Below, one piece after another: positions 32,939 through 52,828 of a stretch of DNA of 64,000 nt (the first letter of the stretch is position 1; the number at the start of each line of letters is the position of its first letter). Below the pieces are notes generated by a model. That model did not search any database. It had not been told where the DNA came from and saw only the letters and a program-made list of their open reading frames with translations. The stretch is from an uncultured Holophaga sp. (lineage in GTDB: Bacteria > Acidobacteriota > Holophagae > Holophagales > Holophagaceae): assembly GCA_963664825.1 (NCBI GenBank), contig OY761614.1, forward strand, positions 1,568,001 to 1,632,000. The letters are read 5' to 3'. Position numbers and translations under genes: made by a program.

Positions 32939-33012
32939 TGGTTGGGGAACCTGGATTCGAACCAAGAAAGGCGGAATCAGAATCCGCTGGTTTACCGTTA
33001 GCCTATTCCCCA
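32939..33012 (-). tRNA. tRNA-Gln (anticodon CTG), CCA encoded
   Basis: Minus strand reads TGGGGAATAGGCTAACGGTAAACCAGCGGATTCTGATTCCGCCTTTCTTGGTTCGAATCCAGGTTCCCCAACCA: acceptor stem, anticodon stem GCGGA/TCCGC, GGTTCGAATCC T-loop. Confidence 0.95.
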
Positions 33013-42464: not shown

Positions 42465-42687
42465 GCCTCCTCAGAGCCCCCATGGAACCCTGAAGCTTCC
42501 AACCGCCCCGGAAACCGGGAAGCAGGTGAAGGCTCCCCCGGGAACCGATTCCTGCGCTGCCCCGCAACGGTGAGCACCTCGGCCCTTGGGTCGGGAGACC
42601 CTGCCGGGGCCACTGGCGCGCTGCGCCGGGAAGGTCTCGGGGACCAGCAAGGTCCGTCGCGTGCGAGCCCGGAGACCGATCCGAGGC
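42465..42687 (+). ncRNA. Cobalamin riboswitch upstream of cobT
   Basis: AACCGGGAAGCAGGTG...CCTGCGCTGCCCCGCAACGGTGA...GCCACTG...CCGGGAAGG...GAGCCCGGAGACC (B12 box). Confidence 0.9.
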
Positions 42688-43771: not shown

Positions 43772-44500
43772 ATGCGTTCACTCATCGCCGCCTTCCGCTT
43801 CCTGACGCGCGTTCCCCTGCCGGGGCCCGCGACCCGGCCCGAGGACATCTCCCGGGCCGTAGGCTGGTTCCCGCTGGTGGGAGCCTGCGTGGGCGCGGCT
43901 ACGGCCGGCGTCTTCCTGCTGGCACTCCGGCTATGGGCCCCGCCCGTGGCCGCCGTGCTGGCCATCGCCGCGGGCCTGATGCTCACCGGCGGCTTCCACG
44001 AGGACGGGGCTACCGATGCCACCGATGGCCTGGGGGGAGGCTGGACCCGGGAGCGGGTGCTGGAAATCATGAAGGACAGCCGCATCGGCGCCTACGGATC
44101 CATGGCGCTGTGGTGCCTGTTGATGCTCCGCTGGGCGACCCTGGTGTCCTTCGGGACGAAGGCCATCCTGGCCCTGCCTCTGGCCATGATCCTGGGCCGC
44201 TGGTCGGTGGCTTTCCTGCTGCGCATGCTGCCGCCCATTGGTCAGGGCCTGGCCAAGGAGGTCCACAAGGGCCTGGGCTGGGGCTCCTACATCGCCTCCA
44301 CCCTGCTGGCCGGGCTGCTCTGCCTGGTGGTCTGGCACCTGGGCCTGCCTCACGTGCTGCGCTCCGTATTCGCGGCGGCCCTCACGATCCTCCTCTGGAG
44401 TCTCTACCTGCGCCACCGGCTGGGGGGCCATAGCGGGGATCTCCTGGGAGCGGGTAACCAGTTGGTGGAGGCCGCCGTGCTGCTGACCCTATTGGCATGA
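43772..44500 (+). CDS. cobS: Adenosylcobinamide-GDP ribazoletransferase (cobalamin synthase)
   Basis: FLTRVP, LTGGFHEDGATDATDGL, IMKDSRIGAYG and GGHSGDLLGA motifs. Confidence 0.92.
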   Translation: MRSLIAAFRFLTRVPLPGPATRPEDISRAVGWFPLVGACVGAATAGVFLLALRLWAPPVAAVLAIAAGLMLTGGFHEDGATDATDGLGGGWTRERVLEIMKDSRIGAYGSMALWCLLMLRWATLVSFGTKAILALPLAMILGRWSVAFLLRMLPPIGQGLAKEVHKGLGWGSYIASTLLAGLLCLVVWHLGLPHVLRSVFAAALTILLWSLYLRHRLGGHSGDLLGAGNQLVEAAVLLTLLA

Positions 44501-45066
44501 CGCCCCTCTTCCTCCTCCGCCACGGCCCCACGGCCGCCTCTCAGTGCGGGGCCCCCCTGGGCCGTCTGGATCTGCCGGTGCTGCCCGAGGGCCAGGCCCT
44601 CTGGCCCCGGGTGAAGCAGGAGCTGCTGGCCCTCGGCCTCCAGCGGGTGCTCAGTTCGGATCTCCAGCGGGCGCGGCTTCACGCCTTGGATTTGGGCCTG
44701 CCCTGCCTGGTGCTGCCGGAGCTGGGGGAGCAGGCCTTCGGCCAATGGGAGGGCGTGCCCTGGGGTCAGATCCAGGGGACCGACGCCTTCTTCGCCAACC
44801 CGGCCCTCGCCACGCCTCCCGGCGGGGAGTCCTTCGCCCGCTGCGCCAGCCGGGCCCTCCTGGCCCTTCAGGGCGCTCTGGAAGGTGAGCAGCCTACCCT
44901 GGTCTTCTCCCACGGCGGTCCCCTGCGGGCCATCCTGGCTCACTTCCTGGGCCTGTCCCTGGAGCGGGCCCTGGACTTGGCCTGGCAGCCCTATGGTCTG
45001 ACCAAGTTGGAGGTTTACGCCCCCAATCGAGCGATCCTGCGTTTCCATAACCGTACCCTCCCATGA
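44497..45066 (+). CDS. cobC: Alpha-ribazole phosphatase (histidine phosphatase family)
   Basis: LLRHG, SSDLQRA, FGQWEG, PPGGES and SHGG motifs; follows cobS. Confidence 0.8.
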   Translation: MTPLFLLRHGPTAASQCGAPLGRLDLPVLPEGQALWPRVKQELLALGLQRVLSSDLQRARLHALDLGLPCLVLPELGEQAFGQWEGVPWGQIQGTDAFFANPALATPPGGESFARCASRALLALQGALEGEQPTLVFSHGGPLRAILAHFLGLSLERALDLAWQPYGLTKLEVYAPNRAILRFHNRTLP

Positions 45067-45155
45067 CGGGCTGCTCTGCCCCGGATCAGCAGGCTGCACT
45101 GCAGCCTGCTTCCCGCTCGCCCTTCGCCTTCGGTTCTGGGCTTGCGGACGGGGCA

Positions 45156-45233
45156 CCCTATGGACTGACCAAACTGGATGTCTACGCCTCCGATCGGGCT
45201 GTCCTGGGTTTCCATAACCGTATCCTCCCCTGA
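45156..45233 (+). repeat. Diverged duplicate of the last 78 bp of cobC (44989-45066)
   Basis: Aligns without gaps, with 13 mismatches, and includes the stop codon; separated from the gene by a hairpin-rich element. Confidence 0.85.
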
Positions 45234-45376
45234 GGTGAGCCCACGCTGGGCTGCGCGGCTGTCATACTGCGGCTTCGACATCCTCCGGCCTTGAGCTCAC
45301 GAATCTTGGATGGCCGTCCCCTGGGTGGGATGGCTTCCTCCAGGCGTCGAGTTCCCCAGCCTCCCTTGGTGGATCC

Positions 45377-46318
45377 ATGCAGCGACCTCCCTCCCTCCTT
45401 GTCTTTGCCCTCGCAGCCCTGATGTTGCCCTTGGGCAGCGGATGTCGCCGGAGGCCGAGGGTGGCCACCCTGCGCGTCAGCGGGGCCTGGGCCCTCTACC
45501 CGGCCATGGTCCACTGGGCGGAGGTCTATCAGCAGACCCACCCGGGCCTCCGGGTGGATGTGGCCGCGGGGGGAGCCGGCAAGGGGATGACGGATTGCCT
45601 GGCCGGCATGGTGGACCTGGGCATGGTGAGCCGGGATCTGCGTCCGGAGGAACTCCGGAAGGGCATTCTGCCCCTGCCCGTGGCCAAGGATGCCGTCTTC
45701 GCCGTGGTGAACGTGGCTAATCCCGCCACGCCGGCCCTCCTGCGTCGGGGCCTCTCTCGGCAGATGGCGGTGGAACTCTGGATCCAGGGCCAGGCCCTGA
45801 CCTGGGACCAAGTGGCTCCCGGAGGGAAGGGCGGTGTGCGCGTCTTCACCCGTTCCGATGCCTGTGGGGCGGCGGAGACCTGGGCCCAATACCTGGGAGG
45901 TCGCCAGGAGGACCTCAAGGGCTTGGCCCTCTACGGGGATCCGGGCCTCGCCCAGGGCGTCTGCAGGGATGTCCAGGGCATCGGCTACAACAATCTCAAT
46001 TTCGCCTTCGACGCCCGCACGGGCCTTCCGGTGAAGGGCCTAGCCGTCGTGCCCCTGGATGCCAATGGCAATGGCATCGTGGATCCTTCAGAAGATCTCT
46101 CCACCCGGGCCAAGGCCCTGGCCGCCATCCGTTCCGGCGCCTATCCCGCCCCCCCGGCCCGGGATCTCTTCCTGGTGGTGCGCAGGCCCATCTCCCCGGC
46201 TGTGCATGATTTCCTGGTGTGGATCCTCAACGAAGGCCAGGGGATGGCCGAAGAGGCGGGCTACGTCCCCGTCTCCGAGACCCAGCGCCGGGAAGCCCTG
46301 AGGGTGGTGGGTCCGTGA
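45377..46318 (+). CDS. PstS-like oxyanion ABC transporter substrate-binding lipoprotein
   Basis: Lipobox-like LGSGC; SGAWALYP, GGAGKG, DLGMVSR and TRSDACGAAETW. PstS fold, atypical ligand residues. Confidence 0.8.
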   Translation: MQRPPSLLVFALAALMLPLGSGCRRRPRVATLRVSGAWALYPAMVHWAEVYQQTHPGLRVDVAAGGAGKGMTDCLAGMVDLGMVSRDLRPEELRKGILPLPVAKDAVFAVVNVANPATPALLRRGLSRQMAVELWIQGQALTWDQVAPGGKGGVRVFTRSDACGAAETWAQYLGGRQEDLKGLALYGDPGLAQGVCRDVQGIGYNNLNFAFDARTGLPVKGLAVVPLDANGNGIVDPSEDLSTRAKALAAIRSGAYPAPPARDLFLVVRRPISPAVHDFLVWILNEGQGMAEEAGYVPVSETQRREALRVVGP

Positions 46319-47217
46319 AGGCTGGTTCCTCCCGAAGGGCCCGGATCCGGCACCTGGCCGACCTCCTCTTCCTGGGTCAGGCCCGGCTCTGCCTGGGGCT
46401 GGTGTTGGGCCTGGCGGCGCTCTTGGTCCTGGTGGTGACTCTCAGCGCGCGGCCCGTCTTGGGCGGGGGATTCGGGATACTGAGCTGTGCCTGGCGGCCC
46501 TCCCAGGGCCAGTTCGGCCTGCTGCCCTTCCTGGCCGGTTCCCTGGTGGTGACCGGGGTGGCGATGGTCCTGGCTGCGCCTCTCTGCATCCTGGCGGCCG
46601 CCTATCTCTCCGAACACGCCAGCGGCCGTCTCCGGGGCCTCCTGCGCCCGGCCATCGATATCCTGGCGGGGGTTCCTTCCGTGGTCTTCGGTCTGTTCGG
46701 TGTGGTGCTGGTGGTGCCCGCCGTGGCCCTTCTGGGGCGTCTCCTGGGCAGGTCCCTCCCTGGATTTTCCGTGCTGGCCGGGGGCATCGTGCTGGCCATC
46801 ATGATCATTCCCTTCGTCCTCTCCCTGAGCCTGGACGTGTTCCTGGCCATCCCCCGGGAGGCCCGGGAAGCCGCCATGGCCCTGGGGGCCACCCGCTGGG
46901 AGACCCTCCAGAAGGTGCTGTTTCGGGCCGCTCTGCCGGGCCTGGTGGCGGCCCAGGTGCTGGGTCTGGCCCGGGCCTTCGGGGAGACTATGGCCGTGGT
47001 GATGGTGGTGGGCAACGTGGCGCGGATGCCCTGGAACCTCCTGGATCCGGCTTGCCCGGTGCCGGCCCTCCTGGCCAACAACTACGGGGAGATGATGTCT
47101 GTCCCCCACTACGAGGCCGCCCTCATGCTGGCGGCGCTCCTGCTGATGATCGTGGTGGGCGGGTCGAGCTTGGCGGCCCGCTTGATGCTGCGCTACCTCC
47201 AGCGGGTGGGGGCATGA
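46315..47217 (+). CDS. pstC: PstC-like ABC permease
   Basis: GTG start overlaps the upstream stop; FGLLPFLAGS, LAGVPSVVFGLFG, EAAMALGATRWE and RAFGETMAV motifs. Confidence 0.85.
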   Translation: MKAGSSRRARIRHLADLLFLGQARLCLGLVLGLAALLVLVVTLSARPVLGGGFGILSCAWRPSQGQFGLLPFLAGSLVVTGVAMVLAAPLCILAAAYLSEHASGRLRGLLRPAIDILAGVPSVVFGLFGVVLVVPAVALLGRLLGRSLPGFSVLAGGIVLAIMIIPFVLSLSLDVFLAIPREAREAAMALGATRWETLQKVLFRAALPGLVAAQVLGLARAFGETMAVVMVVGNVARMPWNLLDPACPVPALLANNYGEMMSVPHYEAALMLAALLLMIVVGGSSLAARLMLRYLQRVGA

Positions 47218-48077
47218 TGGACCCTCGAGCCCTCCAGCGCCTGAAGCGGGATAGTCGGATGAAGGGGCTCATGGCCCTCTGCCTGGGGCTGGCCCTCATG
47301 CCCTTCGCGGCCCTCACCCTCCTTCTGGTGGTGAAGGGATTGCCGACCCTGAGCCTCGGGATGATCTTCCAGGCTCCCCGCAGCGGCTTCTACCTGGGGG
47401 GTGGGGGCGGCATCGCCCAGGCCATCCTGGGCACCCTGCTCCTGGGGGGAGGCGGCATCCTGCTGGCGACGATGCTGGGCTTCCCGGCCGCCATCGCCCT
47501 CCAGCGGGAAATGGCGCCCCCCGCCCTCATCCGCTTCGCCCGGCTGGTCCTGGATCTGCTTTGGGGCGTGCCCAGCATCGTCATGGGCGCCTTCGTCTTC
47601 CTGCTCATGGTGAGCCTGGGCGTCGGGGCTTCGCTATTAGCGGGCATGCTGACCCTGGCCCTGGTCATGCTTCCGATCCTGGTGCGGGGCATGGATCAGG
47701 CGCTTTCCTCGGTGGCCCTGGAACTCAAGGAGGGCGCCACCGCCATGGGCGCCACCCGCAGCGAGGTGTTTCGCCTGGTGGTGCTGCGCCAGGCTCTGCC
47801 GGGCCTCATGACCGCCCTGCTCCTGGCCCTGGGGCGAGGATTGGGGGACGCCGCCAGCGTGCTCTTCACGGCGGGCTATACCGACCGCTTGCCTAGCTCT
47901 TTGCTGGACCCGGTGGCCAGCCTGCCCCTGGCCGTGTTCTACCTGCTGGGCACCCCCGACCCGGAGGTCCAGTCCCGGGCCTATGCGGCGGCGCTGATCC
48001 TGTTCCTCATGGTCTTGGCTGTGAACCTGGGAGGTCGCCTCCTGGGCCGCCGCTGGTCCCGGCATTTGGTGGATTGA
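47214..48077 (+). CDS. pstA: PstA-like ABC permease
   Basis: GGIAQAILGT, LWGVPSIVMG, EGATAMGATRSE, GRGLGDAA and RAYAAAL motifs. Confidence 0.85.
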   Translation: MMDPRALQRLKRDSRMKGLMALCLGLALMPFAALTLLLVVKGLPTLSLGMIFQAPRSGFYLGGGGGIAQAILGTLLLGGGGILLATMLGFPAAIALQREMAPPALIRFARLVLDLLWGVPSIVMGAFVFLLMVSLGVGASLLAGMLTLALVMLPILVRGMDQALSSVALELKEGATAMGATRSEVFRLVVLRQALPGLMTALLLALGRGLGDAASVLFTAGYTDRLPSSLLDPVASLPLAVFYLLGTPDPEVQSRAYAAALILFLMVLAVNLGGRLLGRRWSRHLVD

Positions 48078-48082
48078 TTCCC

Positions 48083-48841
48083 ATGTCCCATTTGCAGATC
48101 CAGCATCTCAGCGTGGCCTACGGCGATCGGCCGGCCCTCCAGGACATCAGCCTGGAGATCCCGGATAGCCGCATCGTGGCCATCATCGGCCCCTCGGGCT
48201 GCGGCAAGACGACCCTCCTCAAGAGCCTGAACCGCCTGCTGGACCTCCAGGAGGAGGCGCGGGTGACGGGGCGGGTGCTCATCGACGACCAGGATATCTA
48301 CGCTCCCCATGCCGATCTGCTGGGCCTCCGCAAGAAGGTGGGCTTCCTATCCCAGCGCCCCTATCCGCTGCCCATGTCCATCTTCGATAACATCGCCTTC
48401 GGCCCCCGCATCCACGGCCTGGAGGGAGCCCAGGGGCCTCGTCTGGAGGCCAAGGTGGAGCACTACCTCCGGCTGGCGGGGCTCTGGGAGGAAGTCGCCG
48501 ACCGCCTGCACGGGCCCGCCGCCAGGCTTTCCATCGGGCAGCAGCAGCGCCTAGCCCTGGCCCGGACCCTTGCGGTGGAACCCGAAGTGGTGCTGCTGGA
48601 TGAACCCACCAGCGCCCTGGATCCCATCTCTGCCAAGCTGGTGGAGCACCAGTTCCAGGTGCTCAAGCAGGACTACACGCTGATCCTTGTCACCCATATC
48701 CTCCGGCAGGCCAGGCGCCTCGCGGATTACGTGGTCTTCCTCTACCTGGGGGAACTCATCGAACACGGTCCCGCGGAGGCCTTCTTCGCCTCGCCTTCCA
48801 CGGATCTGGCCCGGGCCTACGTCCAGGGCGAGATCAGCTGA
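48083..48841 (+). CDS. pstB: PstB-like ABC ATPase
   Basis: [31 protein letters not shown] and [11 protein letters not shown] motifs. Confidence 0.88.
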
Positions 48842-48848
48842 GAACCCC

Positions 48849-49742
48849 ATGAGCCGCTACAGCCTCACCCATCTCCAGCATCTCGAAGCCGAATCCATCC
48901 ACATCCTCCGGGAGGTGGTGGCGGAATTTCGCCATCCAGTGATGCTCTATTCCGTGGGGAAGGACAGCAGCGTCATGCTGCACCTGGTCCGCAAGGCCTT
49001 TCGTCCTGGGGCCTTGCCCTTTCCCTTGATGCACGTGGATACGGGCTACAAGTTTCCCGAGATGTACCGGTTCCGGGATGAGCAGGTGGAACGGCTCGGA
49101 CTGAGGCTGATCGTGGAGCGCAACGAAGCCTGGATCGCCAAGGGTTGTCACCCCCTGAAGCATGGCGTGGACCGCTGCTGTAGCCTGCTCAAGACCGGGG
49201 CGCTGCTGGAGGCTCTTCGCAAGCACGGCTTCGACGCCGCCCTGGGCGGCGCGCGCCGGGAGGAGGAAAAATCCAGGGCCAAGGAGCGGATCTTCTCCGT
49301 GCGGGATGCGCATGGCCAGTGGGATCCCAAGAACCAGCGTCCGGAATTGTGGGATCTCTACAACGGCCGCATCAACGAAGGGGAGAGCGTGAGGATCTTC
49401 CCCTTGAGTAACTGGACCGAGCTCGATATCTGGCATTACATCGCCCAGGAGCACATCCCCGTGGTGCCCATCTACTTCGCCCAGGAGCGCCGGGTGGTGC
49501 GCCGGGGGGGCATCCTCATCCCGGTGGGGGAAGCTGAAACCGAAGGTGTCGAAGTGGTGCGCTGCCGCTTCCGCAGCCTGGGATGCATGCCCTGCACGGG
49601 TGCCGTACCCTCCGAGGCCATCACCCTGGAGGGAATCATCGCCGAGGTGGCCGCCGCCAGGCGCTCCGAGCGGGAGAACCGGGTCATCGATCTCACCGGG
49701 GACGCCTCCATGGAGCAGAAGAAGAAGGAGGGGTATTTCTGA
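48849..49742 (+). CDS. cysD: Sulfate adenylyltransferase subunit 2
   Basis: [47 protein letters not shown] and [11 protein letters not shown] motifs. Confidence 0.95.
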
Positions 49743-51649
49743 TGGATTCAGCCCCCAAATCCCTCCTGCGTGTGGTCACAACGGGCAGCGTGGACGATGG
49801 TAAATCCACCCTCATCGGCCGTTTGCTCTTCGAGACCCGCGCGATATTCGAGGACCAGTTCGACGCCGTGCGCCGCACCAGCGAGCGGCGGGGGGATGTG
49901 GAACCGGATCTGGCCCTTCTCCTGGACGGCCTCTCTGCCGAGCGGGAGCAGGGCATCACCATCGATGTGGCCCATCGCTACTTCGAGACTCCTGAGCGGA
50001 AGTTCATCCTGGCCGATTGCCCCGGCCACGTGCAGTACACGCGCAACATGGTGACCGGCGCCTCCACCGCCGATTGCGCCATCATCCTCATCGATGCCCG
50101 CAACGGGGTCCTCACCCAGAGCCGCCGCCACGGATTCCTGGTGTCGCTATTGCGGGTGCCCCACCTGGTGGTGGCCGTCAACAAGATGGACCTGGTGGAA
50201 TACGACGCCTCCGTCTTCGAGGGGATCGCCCGGGATTACCGGGCCTTCGCCGAAAAACTGGATATCGGTGAGATCACCTTCATCCCCGTCTCTGCCCTCA
50301 AGGGCGATAACGTCACAACGCCTAGCGCACGCATGCCCTGGTACGAAGGTCCCACCATGCTCCAGTTCCTGGAGCGGGTTTCCCCCGTGCAGCACCGGAA
50401 CCTCATCGATTTCCGCTTTCCCATTCAGCTGGTGCTGCGCCCCCACCAGGATTTCCGGGGCTACAGTGGCCGGGTGGCCTCCGGCACCATCCGTCCCGGA
50501 GAGGAAGTGGTGGTCCTGCCTTCGGGGCGCAGTACCCGGATCCGAGAGGTGCTGGGGCCCGATGGGCCGCTGGATGAGGGTTTCGCGGGCCAATCCCTGG
50601 TGCTTACCCTGGAGGATGAACTCGACGTGAGTCGGGGGGATATGCTCGTCCGGCGCCTCAACCTCCCCCAGGTGGGGCATCGGATCCAGGCGACCCTCTG
50701 CTGGATGGACGGGGATCCCCTGGATCTTCAGACCCAGTACTTCCTCAAGCACACCACCCGCACTGTGCGCGCCACCATTGGGAGCTTGCACTACGCCATC
50801 GATGTGGACACGCTCCATCGCCAGAGCGCATCCACCCTGGCCCTCAACGAGATCGGAAGGGTGGAGATCCTCACGGCCTACCCCCTCTTCTTCGATCCCT
50901 ACACCCTGAACCGCGGCACAGGCAGCTTCATCCTGATCGATCCCCTCACGAACCGCACGGTGGCCGCCGGCATGATCCGGGGAGGGACCCAGGATCTGCG
51001 GGGCATTGCCGAGGTGCTTGAAGCGGCCCCCAAGGCCACCCATCTCCAGGAGAACGGCTGGACCATCTCCCGCACCGCCAGGGAAGCACGGAACGGCCAT
51101 TCGGCCGCCGTGCTCTGGTTCACGGGCCTCTCCGGCGCCGGGAAGACCACACTGGCCCGGGCCCTCGAAGCGCGGCTGCACGGCCTCGGATGCCAGACCA
51201 TGCTCCTGGACGGCGATCATGTGCGCCACGGGCTCTGCAAGGACCTTGGGTTTTCCCGGGAGGAACGCAGCGAGAATATCCGGCGCGTGGGGGAAGTGGC
51301 GCGGCTCTTCTTCGATGTGGGCCATTTGGTGCTCTGCACCTTCATCAGCCCCTTCGCGGAGGACCGGGAGCGGGCCCGGCACCTCATCCCCGAGGGACGC
51401 TTCCTGGAAATCCACGTTTCGGCGGGTCTGGAGACCTGCCGTCAGCGGGATCCCAATGGCCTCTACGGGAAGGCCATGAGGGGCGAAATCCTCGATTTCA
51501 CGGGCATCTCCTCGCCATACGAGGCGCCCAAGGCCCCCGATCTGGTCCTGGACACCGAATGTCGGGCGGCGGAGGAACTGGTGGAGGAGCTGCTGGAGGC
51601 ACTGGGAAAGCGGGGCCTGCTCAGCCCACCGAGTATCCCAGCTCCCTGA
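49742..51649 (+). CDS. cysNC: Bifunctional sulfate adenylyltransferase subunit 1/APS kinase (CysNC/NodQ)
   Basis: GSVDDGKSTLIGRLL, EREQGITIDVA and NKMD, then APS kinase WFTGLSGAGKTT, LDGD and FTGISSPYE. Confidence 0.95.
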   Translation: MDSAPKSLLRVVTTGSVDDGKSTLIGRLLFETRAIFEDQFDAVRRTSERRGDVEPDLALLLDGLSAEREQGITIDVAHRYFETPERKFILADCPGHVQYTRNMVTGASTADCAIILIDARNGVLTQSRRHGFLVSLLRVPHLVVAVNKMDLVEYDASVFEGIARDYRAFAEKLDIGEITFIPVSALKGDNVTTPSARMPWYEGPTMLQFLERVSPVQHRNLIDFRFPIQLVLRPHQDFRGYSGRVASGTIRPGEEVVVLPSGRSTRIREVLGPDGPLDEGFAGQSLVLTLEDELDVSRGDMLVRRLNLPQVGHRIQATLCWMDGDPLDLQTQYFLKHTTRTVRATIGSLHYAIDVDTLHRQSASTLALNEIGRVEILTAYPLFFDPYTLNRGTGSFILIDPLTNRTVAAGMIRGGTQDLRGIAEVLEAAPKATHLQENGWTISRTAREARNGHSAAVLWFTGLSGAGKTTLARALEARLHGLGCQTMLLDGDHVRHGLCKDLGFSREERSENIRRVGEVARLFFDVGHLVLCTFISPFAEDRERARHLIPEGRFLEIHVSAGLETCRQRDPNGLYGKAMRGEILDFTGISSPYEAPKAPDLVLDTECRAAEELVEELLEALGKRGLLSPPSIPAP

Positions 51650-52463
51650 GGGTTCCTCCGGCGAGGGCTTCGAAGCGCCGGATCTGGGCAGGGGTCAGCT
51701 GTTGCTTCCATTCGTAGGGATCGCCCTTGCGGAAGAAGGAGGCCTTGTCCTCTTCCCCCGCCTTGCGGCCCTGGCTGAGCTTCTCGAAGGAGGCCGCCTC
51801 CACACAGGCCTGAATGGTCTCCGGGGAGGCCTCGGCCCCCAGGAATTCCAGGATCTGCTTCATCCAGACCGTTGGCTCAGCCACCAGGTCCTCGTAGCGC
51901 ACTTCGAAGTAGCGCTTTCCCAGAGGCAGCGCGGCCTTCCGGGCCGCCTGCACCCGCTCGGCCCATTCCTTGGCCGTGATGGCCAGGAAGTCGTCGAAGC
52001 CCAGGCGCTTCAGGTTCTCGTCCTGGGCCCGCACATTGTGATGCCAGGCGGAGATGAAGACCCCGCGCCCATCCCGGATGATGTGGATGAACTTGGCCTC
52101 GGGGAAGAGGCGATCGAGGTTGGGGAAATGCACCGCATGCTCGGGATCCTTCTCCCCCACGAAGCGCAGCCCAGGCTTGTTGGGATCGGCGATGGCCTGC
52201 AGGCGCAGCAGGATGAAGGTGCGGATCAGCGTCAGCACATCGCTCCACTTCATGTCCGGGAAATCGTTGCTATCGGTCACCACCTGCCTGCGGCGCGCCA
52301 GCAGGGCCCGGTATTCCTGGACGGTCTTCACCAGCCCCAGGGCGAAGTGGTGCACGCAGGCCTCGCCCCGGCAGTTGATCTCCGGGTGGGCATCCAGCAG
52401 TTTGCCCAGCCAGGTGGTGCCTGATTTCGGGGCTCCGGTCAGGAAAAATGGTTCGAAGGCCAT
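51621..52463 (-). CDS. PAPS-dependent sulfotransferase
   Basis: GAPKSGTTWL (5'-PSB), HIIRDGRGVFIS (3'-PB), RYEDL and FFRKG motifs; 3' end overlaps cysNC. Confidence 0.9.
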   Translation of the reverse strand: MAFEPFFLTGAPKSGTTWLGKLLDAHPEINCRGEACVHHFALGLVKTVQEYRALLARRRQVVTDSNDFPDMKWSDVLTLIRTFILLRLQAIADPNKPGLRFVGEKDPEHAVHFPNLDRLFPEAKFIHIIRDGRGVFISAWHHNVRAQDENLKRLGFDDFLAITAKEWAERVQAARKAALPLGKRYFEVRYEDLVAEPTVWMKQILEFLGAEASPETIQACVEAASFEKLSQGRKAGEEDKASFFRKGDPYEWKQQLTPAQIRRFEALAGGTLRELGYSVG

Positions 52464-52562
52464 GAGCAACGCTCCCACGGAGGAGGGCCGGGGACAAGGG
52501 CAAGGTGGGCCCCGAGGACGCCTTGCTTCCCCGGGCCTGTTCATGGGAAGCTGGGCTTTTCG

Positions 52563-52740
52563 TGCTGGATGCACGGGAAGCAGGTGCGAATCCTGCGCTG
52601 CCCCGCAACGGTGTGCGCCTCGTTTCAAGACTCGATCGAAACGGGAGACTTCGCCGGGACCACTGGAGCGCCGCTTCGGGAAGGTTCCCGGGAATCCTGA
52701 AAGGGATTCGTCGCGCGCGAGCCCGGAGACCGGTCTGGCA
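52563..52740 (+). ncRNA. Cobalamin riboswitch upstream of btuB
   Basis: CGGGAAGCAGGTGCGAATCCTGCGCTGCCCCGCAACGGTG...ACCACTG...CGGGAAGG...GAGCCCGGAGACCGG. Confidence 0.92.
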
Positions 52741-52828
52741 TTTTCCCAACCGCCGAGGGAGCGGACCAGGGGCTGGAACTCCGTTCTCGTCCTCCACTTC
52801 CTTTTGGCGCCATGCGTGGAGGCATGCG

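Follow-up and report, generated by a model that had tools for sequence, protein, structure and literature searches.

The pstSCAB-like genes of an uncultured Holophaga sp. most probably encode an ATP-binding cassette (ABC) importer that derives from the phosphate importer PstSCAB and takes up sulfate, here feeding the synthesis of 3'-phosphoadenosine-5'-phosphosulfate (PAPS) for sulfation. The genes lie in a stretch of 64,000 nucleotides (contig OY761614.1 of assembly GCA_963664825.1, positions 1,568,001 to 1,632,000), hereafter the window, and are followed by cysD, cysNC and a convergent sulfotransferase gene (Table 1). This assignment is made from sequence comparisons because three independent lines, pocket chemistry, local gene linkage and genome content, agree. 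A sequence-only reading had put forward the same function, which now appears strongly supported by the pocket, the neighbourhood control, gene co-occurrence and the separate pst-phoU locus of the genome. It is also probable, if a little less so, that the whole PstSCAB clade to which the transporter belongs changed its ligand from phosphate to sulfate through loss of the proton acceptors, and forms a widespread, undescribed uptake system of anaerobes lacking Sbp/CysTWA, with hosts among Syntrophia, Aminicenantes, Anaerolineae, Bacteroidales (including gut strains) and anaerobic methanotrophic (ANME-1) archaea.

Gene families were assigned by Pfam and NCBIfam profile scores. The binding protein misses the cut-offs of two PstS profiles (86 bits against 206.6 and 57 bits against 205) and has no match to the Sbp and CysP families of the SulT sulfate transporters. 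Its predicted model (predicted local distance difference test score 92) has PBP-1 of Clostridium perfringens as its top fold match (Z 27.0, root-mean-square deviation 2.1 over 237-239 residues); phosphate binders occupy fold ranks 1-38, and Sbp is absent among the 50 best matches listed. An N-terminal hydrophobic signal ending near Cys23 makes it a likely lipoprotein. The protein is a member of a single clade with thousands of sequences; of 8000 candidates scored, at least 6351 are homologues, a count that takes in more distant PstS. In a quick tree, 86 subfamily rows are split from 34 other PstS-like rows by a branch with a support of 99; this tree, from which the orphan PstS-like gene described below was left out, joins two long branches with no true outgroup, so that the direction of descent (D-type or S-type PstS) is not settled. 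A natural fusion of the binding protein with a PstC-like permease (P0130, 651 aa) has been found as well, in a cluster with a Bacteroidales-named member.

The pocket of the binding protein contains A37, W38, A39, A67, K69, S85, R86, D105, R159, C163, G164, A165 and R262. The PBP-1 ligands S11, T12, S13, S41, S59, S129, T131 and R125 (PMC5381212) align to A37, W38, A39, A67, S85, C163, A165 and R159, respectively. With PstS fold and ancestry, six of the seven hydroxyl positions are thereby lost, and Arg159 is retained together with both membrane arginines of the permeases. Ser, Thr or Asp stands at only one of the seven hydroxyl or acid positions in 85/85 subfamily sequences (84 loci), whereas among 35 other PstS-like proteins all seven are kept in 29, six in 2, five in 3 and two in 1. 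Both published proton-acceptor positions are alanine (A39 and A165) in 85/85 subfamily sequences, and S85, Cys163 and Lys69 are also invariant, although the GTDB search patterns included two pocket motifs and residue invariance in that set is partly built in. The same pocket residues occur in the 120 best phmmer matches, and the three pocket motifs recur in 80/80 metagenome loci, which were retrieved by patterns lying almost entirely elsewhere in the protein. The distant fringe is looser: among 108 full-length representatives, A39 is present in 83, A165 in 73 and C163 in just 37. Cultured carriers of the motifs include Holophaga foetida (WP_158412946.1) and Bacteroides sp. OM05-12 (WP_369869583.1).

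According to PMC13614923, S13 and T131 of PBP-1 are proposed equivalent proton acceptors, and S13A alone, with the partner acceptor remaining, causes a ~30-fold loss; in SphX, T17A abolishes phosphate binding and T148A weakens it. The sequence-only reading had seen both the Ser/Thr hydroxyls and the selectivity Asp as replaced. Its motifs GAWA, GA, SR and RSDACGA are present as read by eye and the hydroxyl loss is valid, but the Asp aligns to Ser85, not Arg86 (rows GASDAP against GMVSRD), and that part of the argument falls. Ser at the selectivity-Asp position is found in 30/35 other PstS-like proteins and, as Asp59Ser, in C. perfringens PBP-1 (PMC5381212), and is the normal state of S-type phosphate binders. 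We consequently rejected the missing Asp as evidence, since S-type phosphate binders lack it too; the real signal is the Ser/Thr-to-Ala losses. In the mechanism we propose, the pocket would offer hydrogen-bond donors only, namely the backbone NH groups of W38, A39, A67, G164 and A165, the Ser85 hydroxyl, Cys163 and Arg159, perhaps with Lys69 or the Trp38 indole as further donors. Fully ionised SO4(2-) would fit such a pocket, whereas HPO4(2-), which requires an acceptor for its proton, would be rejected.

Among the four transporter proteins, only the PstC-like permease passes a Pst-family cut-off (Table 1). Scores against SulT profiles are lower throughout: 43-44 bits for CysT (44 for the PstC-like protein) and 34 bits for CysW, against cut-offs of 246 and 329, and 131 bits for the ATPase against a CysA-type profile. 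The PstC-like protein keeps the membrane-site pair Arg220/Glu224, and the PstA-like protein keeps Arg208, its RxxGET motif reading RxxGDA; Asp212 of this motif is present in 73/73 subfamily proteins, compared with Glu in 32/32 controls. The membrane-site arginine is found in 73/73 PstA-like and 77/81 PstC-like subfamily proteins. These arginines (PstA R220 and PstC R237 in Escherichia coli, mapped through the RxxGE motif) are described in PMC12976172 as a membrane phosphate site or determinants, and would presumably hold sulfate as well. The imported anion would cross at this conserved two-arginine site, driven by the PstB-like ATPase. The ABC signature of the latter (48083-48841) is LSIGQ, not LSGGQ; LS[I/V/L/T/A/M]GQ occurs in 68/70 subfamily ATPases, and LSGGQ in 27/28 control ATPases read (15 more were unread).

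Linkage of the subfamily to cys genes, which the sequence-only reading had led one to expect, recurs across the loci compared. The best 80 of at least 596 confirmed GTDB subfamily loci were set against 40 control regions around other PF12849 genes. The controls come from 40 of 50 carrier genomes, themselves 50 of the 80, picked by a fixed numeric rule; ten gave no control region. Very short contigs were avoided for controls where possible, 11 control regions lack pstB, and mean lengths are 16.1 kb for test loci, some of them short, and 16.6 kb for controls. Queries for the rarer genes derive from the test loci, which favours the test set, whereas CysD and CysN are conserved enough for detection anywhere. 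Nearby genes comprise cysD at 22/80 subfamily loci, sat at 2/80 and adenosine 5'-phosphosulfate (APS) reductase at 6/80; any sulfate-activation gene (ATP sulfurylase, APS kinase or APS reductase) is present at 24/80, any sulfur gene at 29/80 and an Rrf2 regulator at 31/80, each compared with 0/40 controls. Conversely, phoU is found at 0/80 subfamily loci and 23/40 controls. The linkage between transporter and cys genes is beyond chance. Its partners are three separate CysD clades plus the non-homologous Sat, on separate branches of the transporter tree and in at least six named phyla. By phylum, ATP sulfurylase is linked at 8/10 loci in Thermodesulfobacteriota, 7/15 in Bacteroidota, 2/2 in Planctomycetota, 2/3 in Methanobacteriota, 1/2 in Spirochaetota, 1/1 in Methylomirabilota and 3/19 without assigned phylum, and at none in Chloroflexota (0/14), Bacillota (0/4) and eight small groups.

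Closer relatives repeat the arrangement of the window. In the class (151 genomes), cysD follows pstB directly in each of the 5 carriers, as it does in 4/4 family-level relatives, and cysD is found in 21/22 metagenome loci (close kin) with at least 1.5 kb after pstB. Bacteroidales loci add genes for APS reductase, sulfite reductase, ThiF/JAB and siroheme, and other loci add CysQ, TauE, Sbp-like proteins or sulfotransferases. These lineages would direct the sulfate either towards PAPS and glycan sulfation, as in Syntrophia, Aminicenantes and Anaerolineae, or, in Bacteroidales, towards complete reduction. A hydrolase gene of the alkaline-phosphatase superfamily stands between pstB and cysD in 18/22 of the longer metagenome loci. 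It was considered as a phosphate marker and rejected, as the same hydrolase follows sat at loci without the transporter. A PF01663 gene of this superfamily travels with both cysD and sat/APS kinase (L006:13601-14566, L019:13451-14869, L158:4257-5627) and could be an overlooked component of modules for PAPS synthesis or sulfation.

Genome content is the third line. In agreement with the sequence-only reading, the locus lacks phoU, which sits elsewhere in a canonical pit-pstSCAB-phoU locus whose PstS, PstC, PstA and PhoU pass their cut-offs. A third, orphan PstS-like gene (L002, G000:C1:3098517-3099533) has a degenerate first motif, 2/7 hydroxyl positions and no adjoining permease (tblastn). The cysD of the window is the only one in the genome, and CysNC, taken earlier as the PAPS maker, passes its cut-off as a fused CysN-APS kinase with G-motifs and P-loop present and probably has that role. 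The absence of cysH and cysIJ noted for the window extends further: neither SulP, Sbp, CysH nor sulfite reductase was found in a search of the whole genome (96.6% complete). Because no reductase was found, activated sulfate would be restricted to PAPS-dependent sulfation. CysD and CysNC would thus convert imported sulfate to PAPS, likely for the adjacent sulfotransferase; tblastn returned one sulfotransferase homologue in the genome. The adjacent protein exceeds the cut-offs of PF13469 and PF00685, carries a PKSGTTW motif (the PAPS-binding loop) and scores 30 bits against the NoeE cut-off of 500; its close homologues are named 'Holophagaceae sulfotransferases'. It was found in 0/5 related genomes tested, 3 of them transporter carriers; in G046, the corresponding convergent position is taken by two different genes with weak similarity to sulfotransferases. 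The sulfotransferase is thus a local companion that varies between genomes rather than a constant component of the system, though plausible as a consumer of PAPS.

Among the 50 carrier genomes, CysD is present in 24, Sat in 25, both in 2 and either in 47 (union counted by hand). Canonical Sbp exceeds its cut-off in 0/50 and a weaker Sbp-like gene is found in 4; 46/50 have two or more PstS-like genes. In one order of 201 genomes (that of G175), ATP sulfurylase occurs in 21/23 carriers and 114/178 non-carriers (p 0.008, for kin that are not independent and a high background; adjacency is unseen in the Chloroflexota loci examined). As judged from open reading frame starts (8 frames scanned), sat in 20 carriers is surrounded largely by genes for APS kinase, a hydrolase, an epimerase and other glycan functions.

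Rrf2 genes precede the transporter at 31 loci (L007-L078, for example L018:8425-8892), and 26/31 of their upstream regions contain the palindrome AGTCTAT-N7-ATAGACT at 9/14 or better, often no more than ~30 bp from the start. Most of the 31 proteins have 3-5 cysteines and 5 have 0-1; the Cys-rich ones possibly bind an Fe-S cluster. A search with the operator pattern in 5 genomes recovered the promoters of the transporter together with four sites unrelated to it; the reversed control gave similar counts in 4/5. The window has neither an Rrf2 gene nor an AGTCTAT-N7-ATAGACT site. A lone CTGTCATA at 45259-45266, upstream of the binding-protein gene, resembles half a Pho box; the 8-mer has 15 copies in the genome, and no second half-site was found. 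Scanning with the Pho-box consensus was uninformative, as canonical pst upstream regions scored no better (at least 11/14 in 0/34 of them and in 2/83 subfamily regions).

Several observations weigh against sulfate import. ATP sulfurylase is missing from 56/80 GTDB loci within the DNA examined, including every Chloroflexota locus, though some loci are short, and 26/80 have neither a sulfur gene nor Rrf2. At the genome level, 3/50 carrier genomes (metagenome-assembled) showed neither CysD nor Sat, and only 5 of the 72 CysD-positive genomes among the 151 of the class carry the transporter. The transporter-adjacent cysD of G158 (L015:13746-14622) has an in-frame stop; MetW and alpha/beta hydrolase genes (methionine pathway) lie upstream of it. 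The permeases still score best as PstC and PstA and keep arginines described as phosphate determinants. A Ser-to-Cys exchange at the sulfate site of Salmonella Sbp reportedly weakens binding, so that the invariant Cys163 is unexplained. Porin O/P genes stand beside 19/80 loci, and were rejected as a phosphate marker because they occur in test and control sets (controls 4/40); a Na/Pi-cotransporter-like gene stands beside 5/80. The Rrf2 proteins score 76-102 bits against the CymR cut-off of 195 (NF047409; 7/7 below), with CymR the best equivalog each time, and a shared Rrf2 regulon with sat was rejected, the operator at 20 sat loci lying within the control range. Four Anaerolineae-type loci add an Sbp-like protein of their own, needless for a sulfate-binding PstS. 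Usp genes and a gene resembling a Na/Pi cotransporter are also present at these loci (L041:7442-9665, L059, L068, L071). In 4/4 genomes encoding an Sbp-like protein, no CysT above cut-off was found, and for this reason the protein may share the Pst-like permease. Finally, a DASS-type carrier, here (one DASS-like protein, 186 bits against a cut-off of 198.6) and in other genomes, could be an alternative sulfate route. The cluster L273:823-7126 (G000:C1:1531823-1538126) holds a porin-like gene, a DASS-like carrier gene (by profile scan), an MgtC/DUF-like membrane gene and genes for two related small proteins.

Among the alternatives, it is unlikely that the ligand is another fully ionised oxyanion of sulfur or group 16 (thiosulfate, sulfite or selenate), a small sulfate ester, or several of these. 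The invariant Cys163 and Lys69 would serve such a ligand, and the loss of bulky hydroxyls could make space for a larger anion. TauE-family genes (2/80 loci), the additional Sbp-like protein (4 loci), a sulfatase (one locus) and the hydrolase between pstB and cysD are compatible with it. However, the recurrent partner is ATP sulfurylase, the substrate of which is sulfate, and the genome search found no sulfite reductase by which thiosulfate or sulfite could be used. As the hydrolase also follows sat without the transporter, it travels with sulfate activation.

A second phosphate importer, of low affinity or differently regulated, whose co-expression with cysDNC would lead to envelope glycans or lipids being sulfated when phosphate is limiting, was the other hypothesis of the sequence-only reading, and we consider it very improbable. 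All four proteins score best to Pst families and are named phosphate transporters in the sources, the membrane arginines are kept, many loci lie within glycan clusters, the CTGTCATA half-site precedes the genes and OmpR-type two-component pairs flank some Anaerolineae loci. However, both proton-acceptor positions and the Asp position are without an acceptor of known kind (PMC13614923), the half-site is single, and 4/4 of the neighbouring OmpR-type response regulators fall below the PhoB cut-off and score better to other families. The consistent lack of phoU, with Rrf2 as the recurrent regulator and a canonical pst-phoU-pit locus elsewhere, also speaks against this hypothesis, as do the APS reductase, sulfite reductase and siroheme genes of the Bacteroidales loci, reductive assimilation genes that spare no phosphorus. 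Least probable of all is an importer of molybdate, tungstate or another non-sulfur oxyanion with cys genes hitch-hiking on a mobile block: a donor-only pocket would fit MoO4 or WO4 too, a molybdopterin-oxidoreductase-domain gene lies upstream at L004/L006 and the block is an insertion in this genome, but ModABC over cut-off is encoded elsewhere, the permeases score 59 bits for ModB (cut-off 182.6) and 27 for WtpB (340) with ModA unmatched, and linkage with four unrelated ATP sulfurylase types on separate branches is more than one event can explain.

As a Pst-derived sulfate importer, the transporter would combine features of several known systems. With PstSCAB (D-type in E. coli; S-type in C. 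perfringens PBP-1 and Synechocystis SphX) it shares the S-C-A-B order, the fold, the pocket Arg, an Asp-Arg pair (D105 and R262 by alignment), the S-type Ser and both membrane-site arginines. In contrast to PstSCAB, the clade has six pocket hydroxyls replaced by A, W/F, A, A, C and A, lacks phoU beside it, is linked to ATP sulfurylases and Rrf2, and deviates in its PstA (RxxGDA) and ATPase (LS[I/V/other]GQ) motifs, and the window proteins miss the PstS, PstA and PstB cut-offs. With SulT (Sbp/CysP-CysTWA) it has the proposed job, the ABC architecture and the genomic tie to cys genes in common, yet the window transporter is no sequence member and the carriers lack canonical Sbp; sulfate import here would be convergence with SulT on a PstS scaffold. 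The hydrogen bonds to sulfate in Sbp all come from donors, mostly backbone NH groups. PMC7177696 lists seven, from Asp11, Ser45, Ser130, Gly131, Gly132, Ala173 and Trp192. A precedent for a phosphate family switching to sulfate is CysP of Bacillus subtilis, a sulfate carrier in the Pit phosphate family that has lost residues critical for phosphate (PMC5840216), although it is a secondary carrier and the window system belongs to an ABC family with a binding protein. CysD and CysNC beside a sulfotransferase, in a genome where no reductase was found, form a combination that we liken to the PAPS modules of the NodPQ/NodH-NoeE and mycobacterial type; the window module differs in being fed by a Pst-like importer, not by SulT or SulP.

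No description of a PstS-family sulfate importer was found in the literature searched, most subscription journals being out of reach, and the public names of these proteins, cluster names included, are PstS or phosphate transporter. PstS disfavours sulfate about 10^5-fold (PMC5381212), and a natural clade with both proposed acceptors replaced by Ala offers a direct test of whether the two anions are told apart by the acceptor rather than by size or charge. If the assignment is true, one family would be added to the five sulfate-transporter families listed in PMC5840216. Syntrophs, Bacteroidales and ANME-1, in which the identity of the sulfate transporter is called uncertain (PMC6286981), would also gain a candidate route of uptake, and thousands of proteins labelled phosphate transporters would be mislabelled, which would distort phosphorus-versus-sulfur inference from metagenomes.

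The block of ~7.5 kb is an insertion in a cobalamin operon, between cobT-cobS-cobC and the riboswitch/btuB unit, because congeners show an empty site and the binding protein is present in 0/7 further genomes of this genus. At 3/4 congener loci (G031, G095, G062) cobC is joined straight to the riboswitch, and at the fourth (G056) the cobC side runs on into unrelated DNA. The diverged copy of the cobC end at the left edge of the block is likely an insertion scar; its identity at offset 167 (Table 1) compares with 11-26 at other offsets. Base composition fails to mark the cassette as foreign, with GC and third-position GC (0.82-0.89) the same as in the flanks (0.83-0.90). The layout is matched in contigs of a public run (X1, possibly the source sample) with 0 differences over 44068-52617, and no joint skipping the cassette was found among the public-run contigs listed. 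The gene order, overlaps, pstB-cysD gap and convergent overlap given by the sequence-only reading are borne out by the coordinates.

Table 1. Features of the transporter locus and its flanks (positions in the window; scores in bits)
Feature	Position	Strand	Remarks
cobC-like phosphatase, left flank	44497..45066	+	after cobT, cobS; profile matches
Diverged copy of the last 75 bp of cobC (44992-45066)	45159..45233	+	62/75 identical
pstS-like binding protein, 313 aa	45377..46318	+	PF12849; PstS cut-offs missed
pstC-like permease	46315..47217	+	GTGA overlap with pstS-like gene; TIGR02138 231 (cut-off 196, passed)
pstA-like permease	47214..48077	+	ATGA overlap with pstC-like gene; TIGR00974 186 (cut-off 193, not reached)
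pstB-like ATPase	48074 (TTG, overlaps pstA stop) or 48083 (ATG) to 48841	+	TIGR00972 306 (cut-off 343, not reached)
cysD, ATP sulfurylase small subunit	48849..49742	+	7 bp after pstB; TIGR02039 447, passes cut-off
cysNC, GTPase subunit fused to APS kinase	49742..51649	+	TGATG overlap; NF004035 894 (cut-off 715)
PAPS-type sulfotransferase, 280 aa	52463-51621	-	convergent; overlaps cysNC end by 29 bp
Cobalamin riboswitch, right flank	52536..52752	+	before btuB-like receptor; RF00174, 67.3

A promoter scan of the locus returned 0 sites, and the one terminator-like hairpin, inside cysD, lies below the shuffle mean. In the left flank, a further cobalamin riboswitch (42516-42678) precedes cobT and overlaps its longest open reading frame call; the true cobT start is likely 42751. 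A tRNA gene lies on the minus strand at 32942-33012.

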